The notes beneath the pieces are model-generated. The model did no database searches. It worked only from the letters and a program-made list of their open reading frames with translations, and was not told where the DNA came from. Positions 3,628-64,000 of a stretch of DNA of 64,000 bases are shown here, one piece after another. Each line of letters starts with the position of its first letter. The stretch's first letter is position 1. This DNA comes from a virus (lineage: Duplodnaviria; Heunggongvirae; Uroviricota; Caudoviricetes), in the IMG/VR virus record IMGVR_UViG_2718217859_000011, positions 23,757 to 87,756 of that record; one strand, given 5' to 3'. A program made the position numbers and the translations under genes.

Positions 3628-3856
3628 TTATGTAAACATTTACACTGCTTACCTGCATGGTGCCGGGTGCCTCCCGGTGAATTCAGTATCAGCACCTGAA
3701 TCCGCAATTATCCCATATACCTACTTGCTGATTGCCCCTCCGCACAGGGGGATTCACCATGCGAAATTTTTTTAACAAATGCTCAGTCTGACAGGCAACT
3801 GTCAACTGACTGAATTGTGAGACAATTAAAATTTTCTGGGCGTAACTGATACCCGG

Positions 3857-4021
3857 TTAACTACCTGGCATGTCCTTTTTCACCAAAGGAAAAAGCACCA
3901 CCACAATACCGACCACCAGCACTCCATCCGCCAGCACCGACATGATCCTGCTGGTGAAATCCACCATCACCACCAGAAACAGCAGGAGTGCCACAGCGGC
4001 CAGACGCAGTTTTACCGTCAC
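3857..4021 (-). CDS. Small hydrophobic peptide (54 aa, GTG start overlapping the TerB-like stop)
   Basis: Reverse-strand frame VTVKLRLAAVALLLFLVVMVDF...VVVLFPLVKKDMPGS; GTGA start/stop overlap with the upstream gene; below the 60-aa ORF-track cutoff. Confidence 0.35.
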   Translation of the reverse strand: MTVKLRLAAVALLLFLVVMVDFTSRIMSVLADGVLVVGIVVVLFPLVKKDMPGS

Positions 4022-52202: not shown

Positions 52203-52423
52203 GCTGCACCTCCGAGATGCTTCATGTTTTTTCCGGAGCGAAAGGCTATAAGCGGCATACTGACGCGGTAATTACGGCCCAGCGGTTCACAAATCACCTT
52301 CTGACATTCACGGTCAACCAGGCTAACACGTAGAACATGCCCTGCTGGCGTGGTGTACCACTGACCGGGGAGAGGACAACGGAAAGTCTGATTGGTAAAT
52401 CGTTTGAAAATATTCCGGATCAT
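52199..52423 (-). CDS. Hypothetical protein (74 aa)
   Basis: ATGA overlap with the downstream gene. Confidence 0.4.
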   Translation of the reverse strand: MIRNIFKRFTNQTFRCPLPGQWYTTPAGHVLRVSLVDRECQKVICEPLGRNYRVSMPLIAFRSGKNMKHLGGAA

Positions 52424-53571
52424 TTACGCCCCCTTACCTCTGAAGAGTTCAGCGACGAATGAATAAGACGGGCAAGAAATGCCGCATCGTTAATTCGGTC
52501 ATACAGACTTACAGCCAGCGGTGATTCAGCTTTTTCCAGCATGGGATAAAGCTGCTGCAACCAGACCTGATGAATTGATGAAATGTAGGAATAGAGTACG
52601 CTGGCGTTATGTGCAACGTCGCTCGGTACAGCGGGCTTTGAAAGCTGTTTCTCCATCTGGTTAAAGGCATTGATGTATGCCTCTTTGAACTGGGCAGCAC
52701 GTTTACCCGTGAAACCCATAGCAAGAAACGCAAAACCGTCGCGGGTTATTTGATAGCAAGGTAGTTTGCGGCCTGTGCAATCGGTGTAATCACTCACCGA
52801 AAAATTGCGGGCAGTGAATGATGCGGAGCATTCAAGCGTGCGGATCTTTTTCAGTACATCGTCATGACGTTTGGAGAAGAAGTTGGCAACAGCCAGGGAT
52901 GAAGTAACAGCCTGACCATCAACGATGGCAATTTCAGGTTGAGTGAGGGTTGGGATCGTAGCCATGATGGCAGCCTCTTTGGTGATTTTTAATAACTCAC
53001 CACCAAGGCTTTCCACGACCTTATTGGTGGTGAGACGTACAGGGGTGGAAATACCGGTCACCAAAGAACCCGGCCCAACCGAAGTTGGCCCTGCACGCCC
53101 CACCATAATTTGGGCGTAATGCTGCTCATGACACAAAAAAACCGCAAGAGCGCGGTTGTGCGCTTTGGTGAATTCCGGGTTTCCACGCCCGGCACCCGCT
53201 TTATAAGGTGCCTGAACAGTGTAACGTCCCGGAATGGCAGAATCAATGTGCTGGTGGTCCTTCACACTCAACAAAATCACGCCTGAATTTCCACAAAGGG
53301 CTAAAGCACTCATGCGGGTAGTCTTTGCGAAGATAGATAACGCGCTGTGTTTCTGGCTCCCAACGAATAACATGAACATAAAGTCCTCTTCCGTCACGAA
53401 ACCAGCGGTTAAGTTCCTGCACAACTCGCCCCCCACAGTCAGGTAAAGTTCTCTGTGGTTACTTACAGCCAGGAGATTTGGTAATCTGCATTCATGCCGT
53501 AACAACAGGTGTTCAGCGACGCTGACCACCAGCTGTTGCGACAAATGGTTATTTGCCGTTAAACTGTTCAT
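52420..53571 (-). CDS. Rha-family regulatory protein (Rha domain from the ATG at 52965; the N-terminal 200 codons of the open frame are of uncertain status)
   Basis: C-terminal 181 aa MATIPTLTQPEIAIVDGQAVTSSLAVANFFSKRHDDVLKKI resembles the Rha family; AAGAGG RBS before 52965. Confidence 0.5.
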   Translation of the reverse strand: MNSLTANNHLSQQLVVSVAEHLLLRHECRLPNLLAVSNHRELYLTVGGELCRNLTAGFVTEEDFMFMLFVGSQKHSALSIFAKTTRMSALALCGNSGVILLSVKDHQHIDSAIPGRYTVQAPYKAGAGRGNPEFTKAHNRALAVFLCHEQHYAQIMVGRAGPTSVGPGSLVTGISTPVRLTTNKVVESLGGELLKITKEAAIMATIPTLTQPEIAIVDGQAVTSSLAVANFFSKRHDDVLKKIRTLECSASFTARNFSVSDYTDCTGRKLPCYQITRDGFAFLAMGFTGKRAAQFKEAYINAFNQMEKQLSKPAVPSDVAHNASVLYSYISSIHQVWLQQLYPMLEKAESPLAVSLYDRINDAAFLARLIHSSLNSSEVRGRK

Positions 53572-54131
53572 GCGTTAGTTTCTCCACAGATACAAAACGC
53601 CACGACGCCCGGAGCTGCACACTCGCGGGCGTCACTCTTTTCTGGAGCGCAAAAGATTTTGTAGACCAGTGCTGCATGCTCCTGGAGCTTCGAAATTGAC
53701 AGATACAACTCATCATTAATTGCTGTCTGCTCGTGTGGCTCCACTACCCCATCTTCGATTGCCGAACGAATCTGCTTTGAGTAACTCCCGATCTGTTCGA
53801 TGACTTCCAGCAGGCGCTGGTTTATATCGGCGTTCTCTACTTCCTCAATTTCAGGAAGCGATACAAACACCCCACCAGCAGACTGTGCGACAGCATCCGC
53901 AATGTAGTGAGTGCCAGCCGCGCGCTGTAAAATCATTGCCCATCCCAGCGGGAAAATCTGATCGCCATCTGCACGAAGGCGGTTGAATAAAGCGTTCTCT
54001 GTTACATCCAGCCACTCAGCAGCTTCAGAGTAACCCCCCGGCAACGCCGCGATAGTTTTTCTGACAGCTTTCACGTACCACTCAGGCTGTTTTTCTACTT
54101 TCCAGTGATGCTTACCCACGGTTAGCCTCAT
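53568..54131 (-). CDS. Hypothetical regulatory protein in the cII position
   Basis: 187 aa directly downstream of the Cro-like gene; assignment by position only. Confidence 0.4.
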   Translation of the reverse strand: MRLTVGKHHWKVEKQPEWYVKAVRKTIAALPGGYSEAAEWLDVTENALFNRLRADGDQIFPLGWAMILQRAAGTHYIADAVAQSAGGVFVSLPEIEEVENADINQRLLEVIEQIGSYSKQIRSAIEDGVVEPHEQTAINDELYLSISKLQEHAALVYKIFCAPEKSDARECAAPGVVAFCICGETNA

Positions 54132-54162
54132 CGTTCTGTGGTTAAAAATTAAAGGTGTTCTG

Positions 54163-54363
54163 TTAATCTTTCGGATAGATATCCGGTCTTAAGTCAGATT
54201 TCGTAATTGCACCTGACGTGCATTGCTCAAGTTTTTTAGCCAGCACAAAACTGGCTTTTTTATAACCATTGAAAACCAGCCGTAAGTAGCCTGGTGTTGA
54301 GCCAACTTTTCCGGCCAACTCGCCCTGCTGTTCTTTGGTTAAAGAGTCCCAATACGCTTTCAT
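54163..54363 (-). CDS. Cro-like repressor (Cro/CI-type HTH)
   Basis: 66 aa from MKAYWDSLTKEQQGELAGKVGSTPGYLRLVFNGYKK; divergent from the CI-like gene. Confidence 0.6.
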   Translation of the reverse strand: MKAYWDSLTKEQQGELAGKVGSTPGYLRLVFNGYKKASFVLAKKLEQCTSGAITKSDLRPDIYPKD

Positions 54364-54366
54364 ACA

Positions 54367-54437
54367 ATATGTATCTCTTATATACATATTACATGATTGA
54401 AATGAACCTTCAAGATACTTGTACCCTATCGGTACAA
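54367..54437. promoter_or_regulatory. Immunity-region operator/promoter segment with two palindromes
   Basis: ATATGTAT-n7-ATACATAT (54367-54389) and TTGTACC-ctatc-GGTACAA (54419-54437) between the divergent Cro-like and CI-like genes. Confidence 0.4.
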
Positions 54438-54453
54438 AGGTTTTAATTTCGTT

Positions 54454-55128
54454 ATGAAAACAGTCCATGACATCCGGCGGTCTAACGCCAGAAAACTGAG
54501 AGATGGTGTTGGCGGGAATTCTTCCTTTGCCACCATGATTGATCGCGAACCAACCCAGACCAGCAGGTTTATGGGAGATGGTGCTACTAAAAATATCGGT
54601 GACAGCATGGCACGGCACATCGAAAAATGTTTCGACCTGCCTGTCGGATGGCTTGATCAAGAACACCAGACAACGAACATCACAAAAAAACCTGATGTTT
54701 CAATCACTAATAAACAAATAACGTTAGTCCCTGTCATATCATGGGTACAGGCCGGAGCATGGAAAGAAGTTGGCTATTCTGAGGTTGATTTGAGCACAAC
54801 AGAAACATATCCCTGCCCTGTACCCTGTGGCGAAATGACTTATATATTGAGGGTGATTGGTGATTCAATGATTGATGAGTACCGTCCGGGGGACATGATT
54901 TTTGTCGATCCAGAAGTACCAGCCTGCCACGGTGATGACGTTATTGCATTGATGCACGATACAGGTGAAACCACCTTCAAAAGGTTGATAGAAGACGGGA
55001 CACAGCGTTATCTCAAAGCATTAAACCCCAACTGGCCTGAGCCTTACATTAAGATAAACGGTAATTGCTCTATCATTGGTACAGTTATTTTCTCAGGAAA
55101 ACCAAGAAGATACAAAATTAAAGCCTGA
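54454..55128 (+). CDS. CI-like repressor (N-terminal HTH, C-terminal LexA/S24-type peptidase domain)
   Basis: 224 aa; C-terminal region with Ser...Lys-type self-cleavage domain pattern (RVIGDSMIDEY...KRL). Confidence 0.7.
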   Translation: MKTVHDIRRSNARKLRDGVGGNSSFATMIDREPTQTSRFMGDGATKNIGDSMARHIEKCFDLPVGWLDQEHQTTNITKKPDVSITNKQITLVPVISWVQAGAWKEVGYSEVDLSTTETYPCPVPCGEMTYILRVIGDSMIDEYRPGDMIFVDPEVPACHGDDVIALMHDTGETTFKRLIEDGTQRYLKALNPNWPEPYIKINGNCSIIGTVIFSGKPRRYKIKA

Positions 55129-55140
55129 TCAATGTCTATG

Positions 55141-55166
55141 AACCTGCTTCGGCAGGTTTTTTTATA
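55141..55166 (+). terminator. Rho-independent terminator after the CI-like gene
   Basis: aacctgc-ttcg-gcaggtt hairpin followed by ttttttt. Confidence 0.6.
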
Positions 55167-55323
55167 CTTGACAATGTACCATTAAGATACATAATGTACC
55201 TGCATAAGATATCGAACAGGCAGGACGCCCACGAAGTAGCCGTCCGGGGCATACGAAGACCGGAATGATTCGTAAATAAAAAAGCGCCCAAGTGGACGCT
55301 TCACTTTTGAACTGGATTTATAA

Positions 55324-55533
55324 TCAATTATTTTCTTCATAAATGTTTTGTAATGTATTTATGAGATTTGGTATTTCTTTTATGGGAAAAGAATATATTG
55401 GACTTTCGATAATTTTATCAGATTCAAATGGTGGTTGTTTGCAGGACAGTTGAACTATAACTGAATTATGATCTTTAACTGGCACACAGTACCAACCACA
55501 TACATCAAAAACAGGAGTATTTTGATTATCCAT
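55324..55533 (-). CDS. Small AT-rich protein (69 aa) adjacent to the immunity region
   Basis: ATG at 55533 with GAGG RBS; very AT-rich gene and flanks. Confidence 0.4.
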   Translation of the reverse strand: MDNQNTPVFDVCGWYCVPVKDHNSVIVQLSCKQPPFESDKIIESPIYSFPIKEIPNLINTLQNIYEENN

Positions 55534-55799
55534 TATGTCCTCGACAACTAAAAACACTGCGTACAAACCTCAAAAGCAGGGAGTTATTTATAAAATTTCA
55601 TAAAGAATAATTACTGATAGCGACAATTCATTGTTCTTGAATTTTGAAAAATAGCAAGACAAAACAATGTAAACTTATTTAAGAAAACTTCTTATTATGT
55701 AAACAAAACAACCAATTCGTTATATAGGAAAAACAAATAGTACGCAAGAAAATATTCAACAGGGGTATTACATTCAACCATAAGAGTAATCGTCTCTTT

Positions 55800-56377
55800 G
55801 GTAACTAATACCGAACATTTTATTGTAACACGTCGTATGGCACATGCGTCGTTAGCGGTCTGGGGACGTTAAAGGGGACAATCCACTCCTTGCTCGGGCA
55901 AACAAACCAGGTAGCCGGAATGTGCAAGTCAATGATGATGCTGATAAGACGCCTAACCAGCGTGGCGATCCGGTTTGACGCCTGGGAAGAGACCAGGGTG
56001 CAACGATGAGGGCATTTATGGAGCCGCGACAAAGTGTGGTGCCGTAACTGGCTAAGTGCTCTCAGCGTTGTGGTAATCCGCGAAATGGCGCGGCGGTAAG
56101 TATGGCGGGGTTACTCTTTCCCCGTTGAGGACACCGGATTGTCAGGTTGACCATACGCCTGAGTGACAACCCCACCACAACAGCCACTGCTTTGGCGGTA
56201 CCAGTTTGTACACTTGCTTCCGGCTGGTACCGCTCTTTTTACAAAACAGAGAAGAGCATCACCGGACGACGGGCTCATAACCCAATCCATCCGGGCGGCT
56301 GCCACCGCAGGTGTTCTTCTCTGTTTTGTGGAGAAACCAACCGACCTTGCAGGGTCGATATGATGAGGAGCAGCAAA
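55800..56377 (+). other. ORF-poor, structured leader region upstream of the early operon
   Basis: About 580 bp without a convincing ORF on either strand; several long inverted repeats. Confidence 0.35.
56196..56240 (+). terminator. Strong hairpin with U-tract inside the leader (candidate terminator/attenuator with boxA-like CGCTCTTTTTA)
   Basis: gcggtaccag...ctggtaccgc 10-bp stem followed by tcttttta. Confidence 0.45.
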
Positions 56378-56614
56378 ATGGCTAGCGAACGCAGTACTGA
56401 TGTGCAGGCATTTATCGGGGAGCTGGACGGCGGCGTATTTGAAACCAAAATCGGCGCAGTTCTCAGTGAAGTCGCTTCCGGTGTGATGAACACGAAAACC
56501 AAAGGTAAGGTCTCACTCAACCTGGAAATCGAACCATTTGATGAGAACCGTGTGAAAATCAAACACAAACTCTCATATGTTCGCCCGACTAACCGCGGGA
56601 AAATTTCCGAATAA
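56378..56614 (+). CDS. Hypothetical early protein (78 aa); frame continues past an in-frame TAA to 56740
   Basis: GAGGAG RBS before ATG 56378; in-frame TAA at 56612-56614 followed by 41 further sense codons. Confidence 0.45.
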   Translation: MASERSTDVQAFIGELDGGVFETKIGAVLSEVASGVMNTKTKGKVSLNLEIEPFDENRVKIKHKLSYVRPTNRGKISE

Positions 56615-56805
56615 GACACCACCGAAACGCCGATGTATGTCAATCTCGGTGGTCGCCTGACTATTCTGCAGGAAGACCAGGGACAATTACTGACTCTTGC
56701 CGGTGAACCTGACGGAAAACTACGCGCAGCAGGTCATTAATATCGTTCTTAATTAACTGATTATTTATCTCATCACTGAATATCTTTATATAGTGAGGAC
56801 TTATT

Positions 56806-60050: not shown

Positions 60051-60326
60051 GTGGCTTCTGTTTCTATCAGCTGTCCCTCCTGTTCAGCTACTGACGGGGT
60101 GGTGCGTAACGGCAAAAGCACCGCCGGACATCAGCGCTATCTCTGCTCTCACTGCCGTAAAACATGGCAACTGCAGTTCACTTACACCGCTTCTCAACCC
60201 GGTACGCACCAGAAAATCATTGATATGGCCATGAATGGCGTTGGATGCCGGGCAACAGCCCGCATTATGGGCGTTGGCCTCAACACGATTTTACGTCACT
60301 TAAAAAACTCAGGCCGCAGTCGGTAA
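60051..60326 (+). CDS. insA: IS1 InsA
   Basis: 91 aa [23 protein letters not shown]... Confidence 0.9.
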
Positions 60327-60748
60327 CCTCGCGCATACAGCCGGGCAGTGACGTCATCGTCTGCGCGGAAATGGACGAACAGTGGGGCTATGTCGGGGCT
60401 AAATCGCGCCAGCGCTGGCTGTTTTACGCGTATGACAGTCTCCGGAAGACGGTTGTTGCGCACGTATTCGGTGAACGCACTATGGCGACGCTGGGGCGTC
60501 TTATGAGCCTGCTGTCACCCTTTGACGTGGTGATATGGATGACGGATGGCTGGCCGCTGTATGAATCCCGCCTGAAGGGAAAGCTGCACGTAATCAGCAA
60601 GCGATATACGCAGCGAATTGAGCGGCATAACCTGAATCTGAGGCAGCACCTGGCACGGCTGGGACGGAAGTCGCTGTCGTTCTCAAAATCGGTGGAGCTG
60701 CATGACAAAGTCATCGGGCATTATCTGAACATAAAACACTATCAATAA
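60245..60748 (+). CDS. insB: IS1 InsB (expressed as InsAB' by frameshift)
   Basis: 167-aa ORF overlapping insA in the -1 frame. Confidence 0.9.
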
Positions 60749-61091: not shown

Positions 61092-62609
61092 GTGAATTCA
61101 CGACAATCAAAAGATATTTATCTTGGATTGTGTGGATATGTTGGATGTGGCATGAGAACGATAAACAAAATTATCGAAGAGATATCCAAAGAATGGGGGT
61201 ATAATGTTGTACACATCCGCATAAGTGCGCTTATGGAAAACCCATTATATTTTGAGCCAGCAGCACTGAAGGTATCCGAAAGCACACAAGTTAATAGACA
61301 TTTAAAACTCCAGGATATTGCCAATAAACTTCGTAAACATTACAAAAAAAATGAGTTGCTTGCAGAAGCTGCTATTGCAGCAATCGCAGCAGAGAAAAAT
61401 AATATTGATTATAATAATGATGAATATAAAGGTACTGTCTTCATCATTGATCAATTCAAAAGGCCGGAAGAAATAGAGTTATTCAGAGTTATATATCAGC
61501 ATAATTTCTATTTGTTAGGAGTTTTGCGCGATTTAGATTACCGAATTCCGAATCTCATTGATGACGAATCGACAAAGAACGACCTTCATTTAATTATCAA
61601 TATTGATAATAAATCCTCTGATCCGTATGGACAAAGAACCGGGGAGACCATTCTTGATTCAGATTTTTTTATTAAAAATAACTTCAGCCAAAAAAGTGAA
61701 TTAAAGAAGAAGATTGATCGGTTTTTCGGTCTTATTCATGGCAAAAATGGTTTAACACCAACTTTTAACGAGAAAGGTATGTATGCTGCCTTTTCAACAT
61801 CATTACAATCAGCTTGTTTATCACGTCAAGTAGGGGCTGCACTGTTTGATGATGAAGGGAATTTGCTTGCCGTGGGTAAGAACGACGTACCTAAAGCTGG
61901 TGGCGGGTTGTATAGCAGTGATGATTTTGATAACGATCATCGATGCGTTCACAAAAGTGGTAAGTGTTATAATGATGCAAACAAGCTAAAAATTAAAGAC
62001 CGTATAAAAAGCATATTATCAACCGAAGTAAGAACTGTATTAGGTATTTCCGCAGGACAAACTGTTGCCGATATTAATATAACACGACTTCTAAACAAAT
62101 TAGATAATATTGCAGAAGGCATTTACAAAGACAGCAAAATATCAAGTGTAATGGAGTACTCCAGATCAATTCATGCTGAAATGGACGTCATTACATCAAT
62201 GGCTAGAAAACAAAACGGCGATACTAAAGATAAAATTCTTTTTACGACAACCTATCCCTGCCACAACTGTGCAAGGCATATTGTCGCAGCTGGAATAAAA
62301 AAAGTAGTATATATAGAGCCATTTGATAAAAGCCTTGCTCTTGATCTGCATAATGATGCAATAACAAAGAACGAAGAATCTTCCAAAGTAATATTTTGTG
62401 ATTTTGAGGGGGTATCACCCCGCCGCTACCATAAATTTTTTAGACCAACGGATGAACGTAAAGATGATAAAACAGGGGCTGCAAATAAATTTAATGCTCG
62501 CTACAAAAATCATATAGATGTTCAATATCTTGATGATTATAGAAAGTATGAGACTGTTGTAGCTAAGAAATTTATAAACGAGATTGCTAAACCAGAGTCT
62601 CAGCCATAA
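61092..62609 (+). CDS. Two-domain protein: N-terminal NTP-binding-like domain + C-terminal cytidine/deoxycytidylate deaminase domain (AvcD/dCTP-deaminase-like defence candidate)
   Basis: 505 aa; C-terminal zinc-deaminase signature HAEMDVI ... PCHNCARHIVAAGIKKVVYIEP; N-terminal glycine-rich loop GLCGYVGCGMRT; strongly AT-rich. Confidence 0.65.
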   Translation: MNSRQSKDIYLGLCGYVGCGMRTINKIIEEISKEWGYNVVHIRISALMENPLYFEPAALKVSESTQVNRHLKLQDIANKLRKHYKKNELLAEAAIAAIAAEKNNIDYNNDEYKGTVFIIDQFKRPEEIELFRVIYQHNFYLLGVLRDLDYRIPNLIDDESTKNDLHLIINIDNKSSDPYGQRTGETILDSDFFIKNNFSQKSELKKKIDRFFGLIHGKNGLTPTFNEKGMYAAFSTSLQSACLSRQVGAALFDDEGNLLAVGKNDVPKAGGGLYSSDDFDNDHRCVHKSGKCYNDANKLKIKDRIKSILSTEVRTVLGISAGQTVADINITRLLNKLDNIAEGIYKDSKISSVMEYSRSIHAEMDVITSMARKQNGDTKDKILFTTTYPCHNCARHIVAAGIKKVVYIEPFDKSLALDLHNDAITKNEESSKVIFCDFEGVSPRRYHKFFRPTDERKDDKTGAANKFNARYKNHIDVQYLDDYRKYETVVAKKFINEIAKPESQP

Positions 62610-62761: not shown

Positions 62762-64000
62762 TTATTCAATAGGCTGTCTGTTGGAACCTAAATTAGTGTA
62801 AGTAAGAATCGAATCAACCCTATCCCACCATGCCTGATAGGCTTTACGCTGTTCTTCTAGATAATCGCTCTTATCATAAACTTGCCATACCCCTGGCAGT
62901 TTATGACCGAGCATTATTTCAGCAATATGAGGCGCAGTAAGATCAGAAAAGTTTGTTCGTGCTGTTCGTCTCAAATCATGAAGAGACCAATGAGGAAATT
63001 GATACCCCAAACGCCGCCATGCGTACTGCATTAAATTGTAAGGCAGCGACTGCAATGATGTCCGACCAACTGGCTCCTTGCTTCCTTCCTTGGTAAAAAG
63101 CATATCGGAACCGTTGTTCATAGAGATAACGTATTTTATAAGCTCTTCAACCGGTTCAATAATGGGGCGCTTTAGCGGTTCGCCTGTTATATCACCTGTC
63201 TTATGTCGTTCTGGCGGTACAGTCCATACCTTATTAATGAAATCAAAATCATCCATCCTGGCAGTAATCAGCTCTGAACTACGACAGCCGAAATGCAGCA
63301 ATAGTTTAATGAAGGCCCGGTATTTGGGAACCATTCGAGAACCATCGATCGCAGCATAAAGGATTTTAATTTCATCGTGTGTCAGAAACCGTTTCTTCTG
63401 ACCTTTACGTATATCCATATCTTTACCCGTGATATCCGACAGAGGGCGAGTTTCAATGAGCTTTCTCTTATACGCCCAGACATGGGCCTGCTTTGCGTTA
63501 ATTAGCAATCGGTCTGCTATTGCTGGAGTCTTAGTGCTAAGAGGCTCCAGGACCTCTAACCAATCATGCAATGTAGCTACATCGTGAGGGATAATCCCGA
63601 TTTTAGAGAACAGGTGCAGTTCAAATGAGCGGAGTATCTGCTCAGAACCTTTTTTATTTTTTACACAATATGCGTCATACCAGGCACGGATCACAGACTC
63701 CACCGTCATGGCTTCAGTAGCTTTGCGTTTTTCTGCCTGCTTGACCAATCGTGGATTGCGGTTTGACTCGAGTTCACCACGAAGACGGATAACTTCTTCT
63801 CTGGCCTCTTTTAGTCCAGTTGCCGGGTAAGTTCCGATATCAAGACGCTCACCTTTCCCTGCCCATTGATAACGATATTGGAACACTACGCGACCTTTCG
63901 GTGATACTCTGACAGACAGACCATCCCGATCTGATTTAACCAAAACCTTATCACGTTCCTTTCCAACGACTGAACGCAACCACGCATCAGAAAGCGCCAT
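62762..64000 (-). CDS. Tyrosine recombinase/integrase (prophage integrase)
   Basis: 412 aa; C-terminal catalytic region with R...HxLRR...Y pattern (HDLRRTARTN, LGHKLPGVWQVYD); ATG at the window edge. Confidence 0.85.
   Translation of the reverse strand: MALSDAWLRSVVGKERDKVLVKSDRDGLSVRVSPKGRVVFQYRYQWAGKGERLDIGTYPATGLKEAREEVIRLRGELESNRNPRLVKQAEKRKATEAMTVESVIRAWYDAYCVKNKKGSEQILRSFELHLFSKIGIIPHDVATLHDWLEVLEPLSTKTPAIADRLLINAKQAHVWAYKRKLIETRPLSDITGKDMDIRKGQKKRFLTHDEIKILYAAIDGSRMVPKYRAFIKLLLHFGCRSSELITARMDDFDFINKVWTVPPERHKTGDITGEPLKRPIIEPVEELIKYVISMNNGSDMLFTKEGSKEPVGRTSLQSLPYNLMQYAWRRLGYQFPHWSLHDLRRTARTNFSDLTAPHIAEIMLGHKLPGVWQVYDKSDYLEEQRKAYQAWWDRVDSILTYTNLGSNRQPIE

Follow-up and report, generated by a model that had tools for sequence, protein, structure and literature searches.

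The window analysed here, the whole 64,000-nt stretch of phage DNA, contains at 54454–55128 a cI-like repressor gene whose product matches Peptidase_S24 and which, as the first-pass annotation had proposed, ends in an intrinsic terminator (Table 1). Beyond this terminator lies a putative early-left promoter, PL, directed toward yfdP, yfdQ and yfdR, which agrees with the consensus at 11 of 12 positions and is the best match in a promoter scan of 54100–56800. PL is kept in SfV and in the IMG/VR loci of the same immunity type, and phages with other repressors carry different promoter/operator sequences in its place. The inverted repeat that overlaps PL spans 17 bp, matches in form two sites in the cI-cro interval, and is a predicted binding site of CI.

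The leader of the presumed PL transcript is nearly invariant across 10 distinct phage leaders, including those of other immunity types. Its hairpin is paired in 96% of the cells of this comparison, with compensatory changes at four of the five pairs, and none of 500 shuffles was as good. Neither the leader nor its loop motif recurs elsewhere in the window; as a single-copy element the leader has no nutR-type partner, and a nutL/nutR logic for the hairpin was rejected. On balance, we regard 55168–55273 as the early-left control region of the prophage, comprising PL, an overlapping CI operator and the opening ∼70 nt of the transcript.

The leader ends abruptly at an AT-rich island, with a GC content of 0.27–0.37 over 55300–55800 in 200-bp segments. 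Its limits, 55274 and 55813, are the points at which homology to related phages breaks: on the left, similarity to SfV, F1055 and IMG/VR relatives is lost at 55272–55275, and on the right, similarity to mEp460, cdtI, Stx phages and ∼2,300 E. coli genomes restarts at 55814. Between these limits the DNA is 29.8% GC, compared with 44%–54% in the flanks and a mean of 51.4% (SD 6.2%) for 540-bp segments across the whole 64 kb, of which only 0.08% are as GC-poor. The first-pass annotation had described an AT-rich segment of about 630 bp directly after the CI-like terminator. A sharp AT-rich island is indeed present, but it is ∼540 bp long and begins only at 55274; the first 107 bp of the span originally flagged (55167–55273) are 47.7% GC, thus not AT-rich, and carry the promoter, operator and leader described above.

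Table 1. Features of the repressor-proximal region of the window
Feature	Position	Strand	Description
cI-cro intergenic sites	54370–54386; 54420–54436		TGTAT-N7-ATACA; TGTAC-N7-GTACA
Intrinsic terminator of the cI-like repressor gene	55140–55159	+	8-bp GC-rich hairpin, then TTTTTAT; same element annotated as terminator in phage SfV
Putative early-left promoter PL	55168–55195	+	TTGACA, 16-nt spacer, CATAAT
Candidate CI operator OL	55175–55191	.	TGTAC-N7-ATACA; overlaps spacer and −10 of PL
Conserved 5′ leader of the PL transcript	55213–55273	+	Covarying hairpin, stem 55243–55247/55260–55264, loop GGCATACGAAGA
AT-rich cassette (putative moron)	55274–55813	.	540 bp, 29.8% GC, the minimum for segments of this length in the window
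Intrinsic terminator of the small gene	55281–55302	−	9-bp stem GAAGCGTCC/GGGCGCTTT, loop ACTT, then TTTATTT
69-aa gene, divergent, C-terminally short BssS-like protein (WP_021559686.1; assignment tentative)	55324–55533	−	dN/dS, homologs, profile links, AlphaFold2 model
Shine-Dalgarno GAGGA	55538–55542	−	4 nt before ATG; read from sequence
AT-rich upstream region	55543–55813	−	29% GC; presumed site of the gene's own promoter
GC-rich non-coding leader upstream of yfdP	55814–56377	+	Common to mEp460, cdtI, Stx phages and ∼2,300 E. coli genomes

The cassette is rare. It occurs whole in 29 of 5,426 complete E. coli genomes, whereas each of its flanks is found in more than 2,200, and none of the 5,426 was found to have an exact empty site in which 55273 adjoins 55814. 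The two flanks are leader types of different kinds that recombine at the insertion point. Taken together, we slightly favor a model in which the cassette was acquired horizontally, at a mosaic junction within the PL leader, in an orientation opposed to PL. The right flank is itself structured, with a terminator-like hairpin and a 25-bp stem predicted within 56190–56380 (z = −6.0). Other phages have minus-strand open reading frames annotated across this flank; in the window these are interrupted, and they look spurious. One of these, a 190-aa gene upstream of bssS in F1055, was considered as an operon partner and rejected: its product is Cys/Arg-rich, the corresponding DNA of the window has stops and gaps, and it overlaps the conserved structured leader.

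The single gene of the cassette was correctly called in the first-pass annotation as a 69-codon gene on the opposite strand with a good ribosome binding site, and the same frame is annotated by RefSeq in identical prophages as a hypothetical protein. Its length alone is not significant, given that 6.4% of shuffles of the island yield 81 or more codons without a stop (p ∼0.06). Rather, we hold the gene to be real because of purifying selection, the existence of homologs and the way in which conservation ends at its edges. Against relatives that are 71%–78% identical in protein and 78%–80% in DNA, dN/dS is 0.12–0.19 at a dS of ∼0.9–1.0; similarity to the ∼80% identical relatives is lost beyond 55545, and so takes in the frame and its Shine-Dalgarno sequence. 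Among close variants, divergence is 0.5%–1.9% within the frame and 2.5%–8.9% in its upstream region, and the frame is intact in all 29 genomes that carry the cassette. These comparisons identify 55324–55533 as a genuine gene under strong purifying selection across contexts. The encoded protein is acidic (pI 4.4, GRAVY −0.34), with no hydrophobic or membrane segment.

The gene has a strong terminator of its own, which begins 21 nt past the stop codon and moves with the frame to unrelated loci (55275–55321 of the window matches loci L005–L007). Read in the plus direction, this hairpin has only CACTTTTG after it, and this reverse face may cause partial termination of PL transcripts. The region upstream of the gene is unique to the cassette and evolves 4–10 times faster than the frame, with one fully conserved block at 55750–55816. 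A consensus scan gave no minus-strand promoter candidate in 55543–55813; the only two minus-strand matches (9/12) fall within the small frame, and inspection by eye of the upstream region yielded weak −35/−10 candidates only. The promoter of the gene is presumed to lie in this upstream region.

Direct searches with the 69-aa protein returned no usable match in Pfam, PHROG, PADLOC or NCBIfam, and a tblastn search against 50,697 phage records gave none either. Its detectable relatives are BssS-family proteins only, and these are reached through intermediates. BssS, also named YceP, is the "biofilm regulator through signal secretion" known from E. coli and other Enterobacteriaceae. The Pfam BssS HMM (PF13991; gathering threshold 27 bits) scores E. 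coli BssS at 83.3 bits, F1055_0037 at 61.9, and the intermediates P0007 and P0013 at 31.6 and 27.9; the window protein and proteins P0002 and P0003 have no match to it even at E ≤ 10. Searched against 1.84 billion representative proteins, a profile of the subfamily picks up P0007 (E = 7e-6) and P0010 (E = 3e-4). In profile comparison with hhalign, BssS together with the intermediates is matched at 97.2% probability (E = 3e-11), but BssS proper at only 27.8%, over 38 columns (p = 6e-4). An HMM built from 114 sequences of BssS proper (113 database proteins and F1055_0037) scores the window protein at 11.1 bits (p = 2e-5 as a single test). In the alignment, the window protein and BssS have in common the pattern PVFxVxGW...PP...NLIxxLQ, and G13, W14 and L61 are kept in all 27 aligned sequences. 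By way of these intermediates, we tentatively place the protein in the BssS (YceP) family, as a highly diverged form without the C-terminal tail.

Structure prediction is consistent with this assignment. The mean confidence of the AlphaFold2 model rose from a pLDDT of 66.8, with three sequences in the alignment, to 87.6 once BssS relatives were added. The improved model comprises three predicted β strands (residues 10–19, 24–32 and 41–50) followed by an α-helix (51–68). Foldseek searches found no PDB match at E < 0.29 for the first, poor model and weak matches in BFVD for the better one, to an IraD/Gp25-like protein (E = 0.04) and to a viral "BssS family" protein (E = 0.29). Sequence searches of the PDB gave matches at chance level only with the BssS-like profile (E ≥ 0.36) and none with E. 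coli BssS; thus there is no solved relative. The predicted model also resembles COMM domains, PUR-alpha and PC4, but in shape only: identities are 4%–15%, there is no sequence similarity, and the likeness does not amount to membership of these families. The acidic character of the protein argues against nucleic acid binding of the kind seen in PUR and PC4.

The first-pass annotation had viewed the region as an immunity-proximal accessory slot, and comparison of related phages bears this out and shows the slot to be hypervariable. Between repressor and yfdP, SfV has an unrelated 98-aa gene, an O25b:H4 prophage has nothing, strain DDG220 has two small plus-strand genes, and many phages carry a BssS-family gene. 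The proposed search for homologs in other prophage immunity regions was informative, as BssS-family genes recur beside repressors. Of 22 related IMG/VR contigs, at least 17 have a canonical BssS gene at this position, likewise antisense, as does Salmonella phage F1055. A cI-like gene lies on one side in 17 of the 22 IMG/VR loci and yfdP-yfdQ on the other side as well in 10, with BssS always antisense. Two of these loci (L013 and L018) encode a repressor 85%–87% identical to that of the window and have a canonical 83-aa BssS in the slot. In F1055 (OP745618), F1055_0037 follows the PL leader and precedes the early-left genes, from which it differs in strand; phages of this type pair their BssS gene with one for a 61-aa ClpX zinc-finger-like protein. 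The gene for P0007 adjoins a CI/Cro pair, its transcription converging with that of cI. Full-text searches on BssS, several of whose matches concern the restriction enzyme Nb.BssSI, found no paper on prophage-encoded BssS or on BssS genes in this slot.

The frame and its terminator are also found on plasmids, beside an EtpBAC-like adhesin locus comprising TpsB, TpsA, an HMW1C-type glycosyltransferase, a DUF2919 protein and a LuxR-type HTH protein. They constitute a unit that has moved between unrelated loci, and the presence of close relatives at the adhesin locus shows that the gene also exists apart from phage immunity regions. Since the 78%–80% relatives lie downstream of a two-partner-secretion gene, an orphan CdiI-type immunity protein was considered and rejected: the locus is EtpBAC-like rather than cdiBAI, and ∼400 bp separate the small gene from it.

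These observations lead us to lean toward a model in which the cassette is a moron expressed in the lysogen, with a small acidic β3-α product that acts as a BssS-like regulator of host physiology. In the lysogen CI would shut off PL, and we propose that the antisense gene can then be transcribed from its own promoter. The product, probably a dimer, would bind a host protein and thereby shift stress, biofilm or signaling behavior as chromosomal BssS does, a form of lysogenic conversion. Upon induction, transcription from PL would run head-on across the cassette and should silence the small gene. Counting against this model, no convincing sigma-70 promoter was found upstream of the gene, and H-NS frequently silences such AT-rich DNA. 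To say that the protein works like BssS is, in addition, a statement at the level of phenotype only. Moreover, its function may differ from that of BssS, as the last ∼15 conserved residues are absent. BssS has been described as a small regulator induced by stress and biofilm growth, and, with a yceP mutant, pathogens were able to colonize the mouse gut (PMC3646849).

The gene had also been read, in the first-pass annotation, as occupying a rex-like position and as a possible exclusion gene, and neither proposal holds up well. The gene lies beyond PL and its operator (55168–55195), on the opposite strand and with its own terminator, and the cI terminator precedes PL; it is thus outside the cI transcript and antisense to the early-left transcript. 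The lambda rexAB genes share a transcript with cI and are situated between it and OL/PL. Superinfection exclusion or abortive infection, in which a small protein made by the lysogen blocks other phages as Rex and SieB do, would draw on the general enrichment of immunity-proximal hypervariable slots of temperate phages in exclusion and defence genes, on an orientation and terminator that fit lysogen expression, and on the recurrence of BssS-family genes beside repressors in many phages. We nevertheless judge it unlikely. Beyond its place outside the cI operon, the protein matches no PADLOC or other defence model and is soluble and acidic, unlike RexB and SieB, which are membrane proteins. Its relatives include the conserved, housekeeping-type chromosomal bssS and the plasmid copies beside the adhesin locus, and the prophage has a recognizable defence gene elsewhere, a dCTP deaminase at 61092–62609. 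The small gene is probably an ordinary prophage passenger gene rather than a Rex-like exclusion gene or a new immunity system.

Two further readings appear quite improbable to us. By analogy with DinI-like proteins, the product could bind RecA, a protease or an adaptor and so tune cleavage or stability of CI and set the threshold for induction of the prophage. Both here and in most phage relatives, the gene's neighbor is a repressor of the S24 type (LexA-like, self-cleaving), chromosomal bssS lies directly 3′ of dinI, the F1055-type gene has a ClpX zinc-finger-like partner, and the predicted fold resembles protein-protein interaction modules such as the COMM domain. This is an argument from context, however, with no sequence or fold likeness to DinI; the relatives at the adhesin locus have no repressor nearby, and the published phenotypes of BssS concern biofilm and signaling, not SOS (PMC3646849). 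Alternatively, the cassette could be a silenced hitch-hiker whose protein has little or no role, the local effect, if any, being that AT-rich, H-NS-prone DNA and a two-faced terminator dampen early-left transcription. Its location within the PL leader, the short T run after the plus-strand face of the hairpin, and the poor showing of the upstream region in promoter scans would all suit such an element, as would the insignificant length of the frame and the decay nearby (a nonsense mutation in yfdP, and IS1). Set against this are the strong purifying selection on the frame across contexts, its better conservation than the upstream region within the cassette lineage, its intactness in every genome that carries the cassette, and the fact that what moved between loci was the frame with its terminator. 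Considered together, these data are most readily accommodated by a lysogen-expressed moron encoding a BssS-like regulator.

The protein, which every database lists as "hypothetical", thereby receives an identity, albeit a tentative one, as BssS-like. In addition, BssS-family genes are seen to recur, among SfV/F1055-like temperate phages of E. coli, Shigella and Salmonella, in one defined slot beside the repressor, where they lie antisense within the early-left leader. Should the phage-borne genes function as bssS does in the chromosome, the prophages carrying them would alter the biofilm, stress and colonization behavior of their hosts, and the 69-aa and 84-aa forms together offer a compact set of natural variants for dissecting the molecular function of BssS. 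A bolder proposal, and a rather improbable one, is that BssS is at heart an accessory family of temperate-phage immunity regions, concerned with the induction threshold or with exclusion of rivals; the chromosomal bssS after dinI would then be a domesticated prophage gene, and the 69-aa lineage a minimal functional β3-α core, without the tail, now dispersed among prophages, IncF plasmids and an adhesin island. Were this so, a long-unexplained "biofilm regulator" would acquire a concrete and testable molecular role.

A moron, in the concept of Hendrix and Juhala, is an autonomous promoter-gene-terminator unit of deviant composition that is present in some relatives and absent from others. The cassette resembles lambdoid morons in its deviant base composition, its own terminator, an orientation independent of the surrounding operon, and presence/absence polymorphism with sharp mosaic junctions, alternative occupants and an empty slot. 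Lambdoid morons, however, lie between late genes, whereas the cassette lies within the untranslated PL leader, and its promoter is a putative one. With lambda rexAB and the sieB genes of lambda and P22, the window gene has in common an accessory nature, proximity to a lambdoid repressor and presumed expression in the lysogen. In contrast to the rexAB genes in the cI operon, and to the membrane proteins RexB and SieB, it lies past PL, is antisense with its own terminator, and encodes a soluble protein without a sequence or model match to them.

The closest comparison is with BssS itself. Both proteins are small, acidic and cytoplasmic, with an N-terminal xVFxVxGW motif, a central PP loop and a C-terminal amphipathic helix (NLIxxLQ), in the window protein within a predicted β3-α architecture. 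Identity to E. coli BssS is only ∼13%–15%, however, and whereas BssS has 83–85 residues (84 in E. coli) and a conserved tail (..SGD/SSD.....H), the window protein stops after the helix. E. coli bssS, at 45% GC compared with 29% for the window gene, sits at a conserved chromosomal dinI-bssS-solA locus, while the window lineage is found in a prophage or on plasmids. The phage BssS genes (F1055_0037 and those of the 22 IMG/VR contigs) share with the window gene its slot, after the repressor and PL leader and before yfdP-yfdQ, and its antisense orientation; they also have in common the conserved PL leader, ending at the same junction. These genes are nonetheless canonical, encoding 83 residues at 44%–50% GC, and have no DNA similarity to the window cassette, whose gene represents a separate AT-rich lineage almost confined to E. 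coli.

The lowest-GC stretch of its size in the 64 kb is a 540-bp cassette (55274–55813; 29.8% GC; window mean, 51.4%), with values of 0.27–0.37 in 200-bp windows across 55300–55800. The AT-rich island picked out by the first-pass annotation is thus real and extreme, but it does not begin immediately after the cI terminator as described, since the 107 bp directly 3′ of that terminator have 47.7% GC. On the left, SfV, Salmonella phage F1055 and all IMG/VR relatives lose homology at 55272–55275; on the right, mEp460, cdtI, Stx phages and ∼2,300 E. coli genomes regain it at 55814, which is a recurrent recombination junction. Of 5,426 complete E. coli genomes, only 29 contain the entire cassette. 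No direct 55273–55814 join was found among genomes, and the cassette therefore lies at the junction of two leader types rather than within a known empty site. The same slot, between the repressor/PL leader and yfdP, is occupied in SfV by a plus-strand gene of 98 aa, which is unrelated and has a terminator of its own, and in strain DDG220 by two small plus-strand genes; in an O25b:H4 prophage it is empty, a different repressor and PL being joined straight to the segment from 55823 onward. The earlier description of an immunity-proximal accessory slot holds.

The surrounding prophage is of the SfV/e14-like lambdoid type, from E. coli, and 801 bp spanning the cassette region are 100% identical to prophages of E. 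coli GB089, 09-00049 and others. From the gene strands around cI, the early-right operon runs leftward, with cI and the early-left genes oriented rightward. A C4 antisense RNA (53023–53110, −; 83.6 bits) and the Hfq-binding sRNA isrK (53135–53211, −; 67 bits) are located upstream of the Rha/Ash gene, within a mechanical 383-aa ORF (52420–53571) that begins earlier than the RefSeq start of Rha; the c4 target a1/b1 is matched weakly. The arrangement is that of a P1/P7-immI-like or Gifsy-like module for antirepressor control. An anti-phage dCTP deaminase gene (61092–62609, +; PADLOC dCTPase, 540 bits; dCMP_cyt_deam_1), the recognizable defence cargo of the prophage, occupies the second lowest-GC patch in the window and lies between an IS1 transposase ORF just upstream (60245–60748) and the adjoining integrase (62762–64000, −).

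Features of the cassette and the flanking immunity region
Feature	Coordinates	Strand	Remarks
Rha/Ash gene			further left of cII-like gene
cII-like gene	53568–54131	−	Phage_CP76
cro-like gene	54163–54363	−	
cI-like repressor	54454–55128	+	Peptidase_S24; annotated ymfK
cI terminator	55140–55159		
Sigma-70 promoter match	55168–55195	+	TTGACA-16 nt-CATAAT; 11/12 positions, best in region
17-bp inverted repeat	55175–55191		TGTAC-N7-ATACA; spans promoter spacer and −10
Conserved leader, 60 nt	55213–55273	+	just after putative PL start; hairpin 55243–55264
Cassette terminator	55302–55281	−	9-bp hairpin + T run; begins 21 nt past stop codon
69-codon ORF	55324–55533	−	RefSeq hypothetical protein WP_021559686.1
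Shine-Dalgarno	55538–55542	−	GAGGA, 4 nt before ATG
AT-rich upstream region	55543–55813	−	5′ end of cassette reading
yfdP, yfdQ (DUF2303), yfdR, PAPS-reductase-like gene		+	right of cassette

The 69-codon ORF and its good ribosome-binding site are present as first reported. Its length alone is not significant in so short a stretch, an equally long open run arising in 6.4% of shuffles. Against relatives with 71%–78% protein and 78%–80% DNA identity, dN/dS is 0.12–0.19, at a dS (0.9–1.0) that is near saturation, and DNA similarity to these relatives is limited to the ORF, Shine-Dalgarno and terminator (55275–55545). Within the cassette lineage itself the ORF diverges by 0.5%–1.9%, versus 2.5%–8.9% for the AT-rich upstream region. 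On this evolutionary evidence, we consider the ORF a real gene. No convincing promoter for it could be located in the cassette, whose anatomy otherwise matches that of a moron.

The window protein has no match in PHROGs, PADLOC, NCBIfam or Pfam, the last even at E ≤ 10, and close relatives are found only in E. coli, as a handful of clusters among 5.8 billion, and in prophage fragments on plasmids of Salmonella and E. coli. A subfamily profile searched against 1.84 billion representative proteins retrieves two of 84–85 aa, P0007 (E 7e-6) and P0010 (E 3e-4); P0007 and a further database protein, P0013, in turn score 31.6 and 27.9 bits against Pfam BssS (PF13991; gathering threshold 27 bits). When the subfamily is compared, profile against profile, with E. 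coli BssS plus these intermediates, the probability is 97.2% (E 3e-11, 63 columns). A profile of BssS proper only (113 database sequences and F1055_0037) scores the window protein at 11.1 bits (p = 2e-5, a single planned test), and hhalign with BssS proper only gives p = 6e-4, but a probability of 27.8%. The window protein fails the formal Pfam test for BssS but resembles the family and is joined to it via intermediates. Both share an xVFxVxGW strand, a PP-containing loop and an NLIxxLQ helix; BssS continues into a tail of ∼15 residues, whereas the window protein ends straight after the helix. Adding BssS relatives to the alignment raises the AlphaFold2 pLDDT from 66.8 to 87.6, for a model with three antiparallel strands and a C-terminal helix. 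Acidity (pI 4.4–5.6) is common to the window protein and every BssS relative examined. Judged from sequence, it is a genuine, very divergent, tail-less relative of BssS, and we regard the cassette anatomy and this family link, as a joint claim, as very probably correct.

The strongest contextual result is the recurrence of BssS-family genes in this slot. In F1055 a clear member (61.9 bits), encoded on the opposite strand to PL, is flanked by the conserved PL leader and the early-left genes. Among 22 IMG/VR contigs with F1055-type BssS genes (59%–100% identical), 17 have a cI-like repressor gene 0.3–2 kb to one side; ten also have yfdP-yfdQ on the far side, and the BssS gene is antisense to both in every case. 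In two such contigs (L013, L018) the repressor is 85%–87% identical to that of the window. The P0007 gene adjoins a CI/Cro pair, convergent with cI, and the P0013 contig also carries a holin and a KilA-N gene. The window cassette has no DNA similarity to these phage BssS genes and differs in GC content (29% versus 40%–50%); it belongs to the same family and occupies the same place, but forms a lineage of its own. On IncF plasmids and chromosomes, the 78%–80% relatives are located after a two-partner-secretion adhesin locus of EtpBAC-like type (TpsB, TpsA, HMW1C-type glycosyltransferase, DUF2919 and a LuxR-type regulator); the gene is therefore not tied to phage immunity regions. Large conjugative plasmids (loci L004 and L046; Salmonella IncFIB-IncFIC plasmids and E. 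coli p1054c) carry a prophage fragment corresponding to 55178–56387 (90.6% identity) that takes in PL, cassette and yfdP leader and adjoins ArtA/ArtB-like (pertussis-like/subtilase AB5) toxin genes, a holin pseudogene and IS elements.

F1055-type phages carry, as the first gene past the PL leader, one for a 61-aa protein consisting of little more than a single ClpX-type C4 zinc finger (PF06689, 40.4 bits; 3810–3995, −, in locus L009 of phage F1055). It is convergent with the BssS gene, recurs in loci L012–L014, L029, L032–L033 and L051, is absent from the window, and may act as a mimic or an inhibitor of ClpX. On the chromosome, bssS immediately follows dinI (pyrC-dinI-bssS-solA; E. coli metagenome contigs L049, L050). 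Since prophages commonly carry dinI-like genes, and their immunity regions repeatedly harbor BssS genes, the dinI-bssS pair may be of phage origin.

The inverted repeat in the promoter match has the same form as two cI-cro intergenic sites (54370–54386 and 54420–54436). Promoter and operator are kept in SfV and two IMG/VR phages with repressors 85%–87% identical, and phages with other repressors have different sequences at this position. We read the two elements as putative PL and, overlapping it, OL, a candidate CI operator. The leader that follows is near-invariant, even across phages of differing repressor or immunity type. Its hairpin has a 5-bp stem (55243–55247/55260–55264) and a loop (GGCATACGAAGA) of 12 conserved nucleotides (GGCRYAHGAAKN). 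Across 10 distinct sequences, 96% of the cells in the stem are paired and four of its five pairs show compensatory changes, a signal reached in 0 of 500 shuffles; slid controls are at most 62% paired. No second copy of the leader exists within the window, and we therefore rejected a classical nutL/nutR pair.

Beyond the cassette, 55814–56377 is non-coding (53.9% GC) and conserved in mEp460, cdtI, Stx phages and ∼2,300 E. coli genomes. The minus-strand ORFs annotated over it elsewhere (F1055_0036, 190 aa; mEp460_036 and _037) are probably false gene calls made over an RNA leader, because they are Cys/Arg-rich and their frames are broken in the window. Upstream of yfdP, 56190–56380 (+) is exceptionally structured (MFE −80.9 kcal/mol, z = −6.0; no Rfam match), comprising a terminator-like 13-bp hairpin with U run (56194–56240), a ∼97-nt stem-loop closed by a perfect 25-bp stem, possibly an RNase III target as in the lambda N leader, and a short hairpin ahead of the yfdP Shine-Dalgarno. 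The window copy of yfdP (56378–56740, +) is probably a pseudogene: G>T at 56612 converts codon 79 from GAA to TAA, with a second change, R90L, whereas the GB089 prophage, near-identical otherwise, has an intact gene (120 aa).

The cassette is a self-contained ORF and terminator under purifying selection, antisense within the PL leader. In a lysogen, CI would repress PL and the gene would be transcribed from its own putative promoter. After induction, PL transcription would collide with the gene and antisense RNA would cover it; yfdP would be reached only by read-through of the plus-strand face of the terminator (hairpin, then CACTTTTG), and the transcript would also have to pass 540 nt of untranslated AT-rich RNA and the terminator-like hairpin at 56194–56240. 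[quoted passage not shown] Because BssS is the only functional lead for the protein, we favor lysogenic conversion, in which a small dimeric protein-binding regulator would shift host stress and biofilm behavior. The whole package, a BssS-like moron for lysogenic conversion, seems to us somewhat better than an even bet; the proposed function in host stress/biofilm regulation, argued by analogy, is tentative. That the protein tunes the prophage switch or the SOS response is improbable: the idea is suggested by neighbors alone, namely the adjoining S24 repressor, the chromosomal dinI-bssS adjacency and the ClpX-zinc-finger partner in F1055-type phages. We give the same low weight to a silenced passenger whose DNA merely obstructs PL. 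Phage exclusion, the function first proposed from the immunity-proximal position of the gene, is slightly less improbable than these two but still unlikely; nothing ties the protein to known exclusion or defence proteins.

The BssS family is already known, as is the moron as a kind of element. What is new is the placing of an orphan protein in a BssS-like subfamily that lacks the tail, and the finding that SfV/F1055-like phages repeatedly carry BssS-family genes antisense in their early-left leader, an arrangement of which full-text searches on BssS returned no description. The position is not rex-like, contrary to what had been supposed. Lambda rexAB lies between cI and PL, within the cI transcript; the window gene, in contrast, lies past PL, on the opposite strand and with its own terminator.
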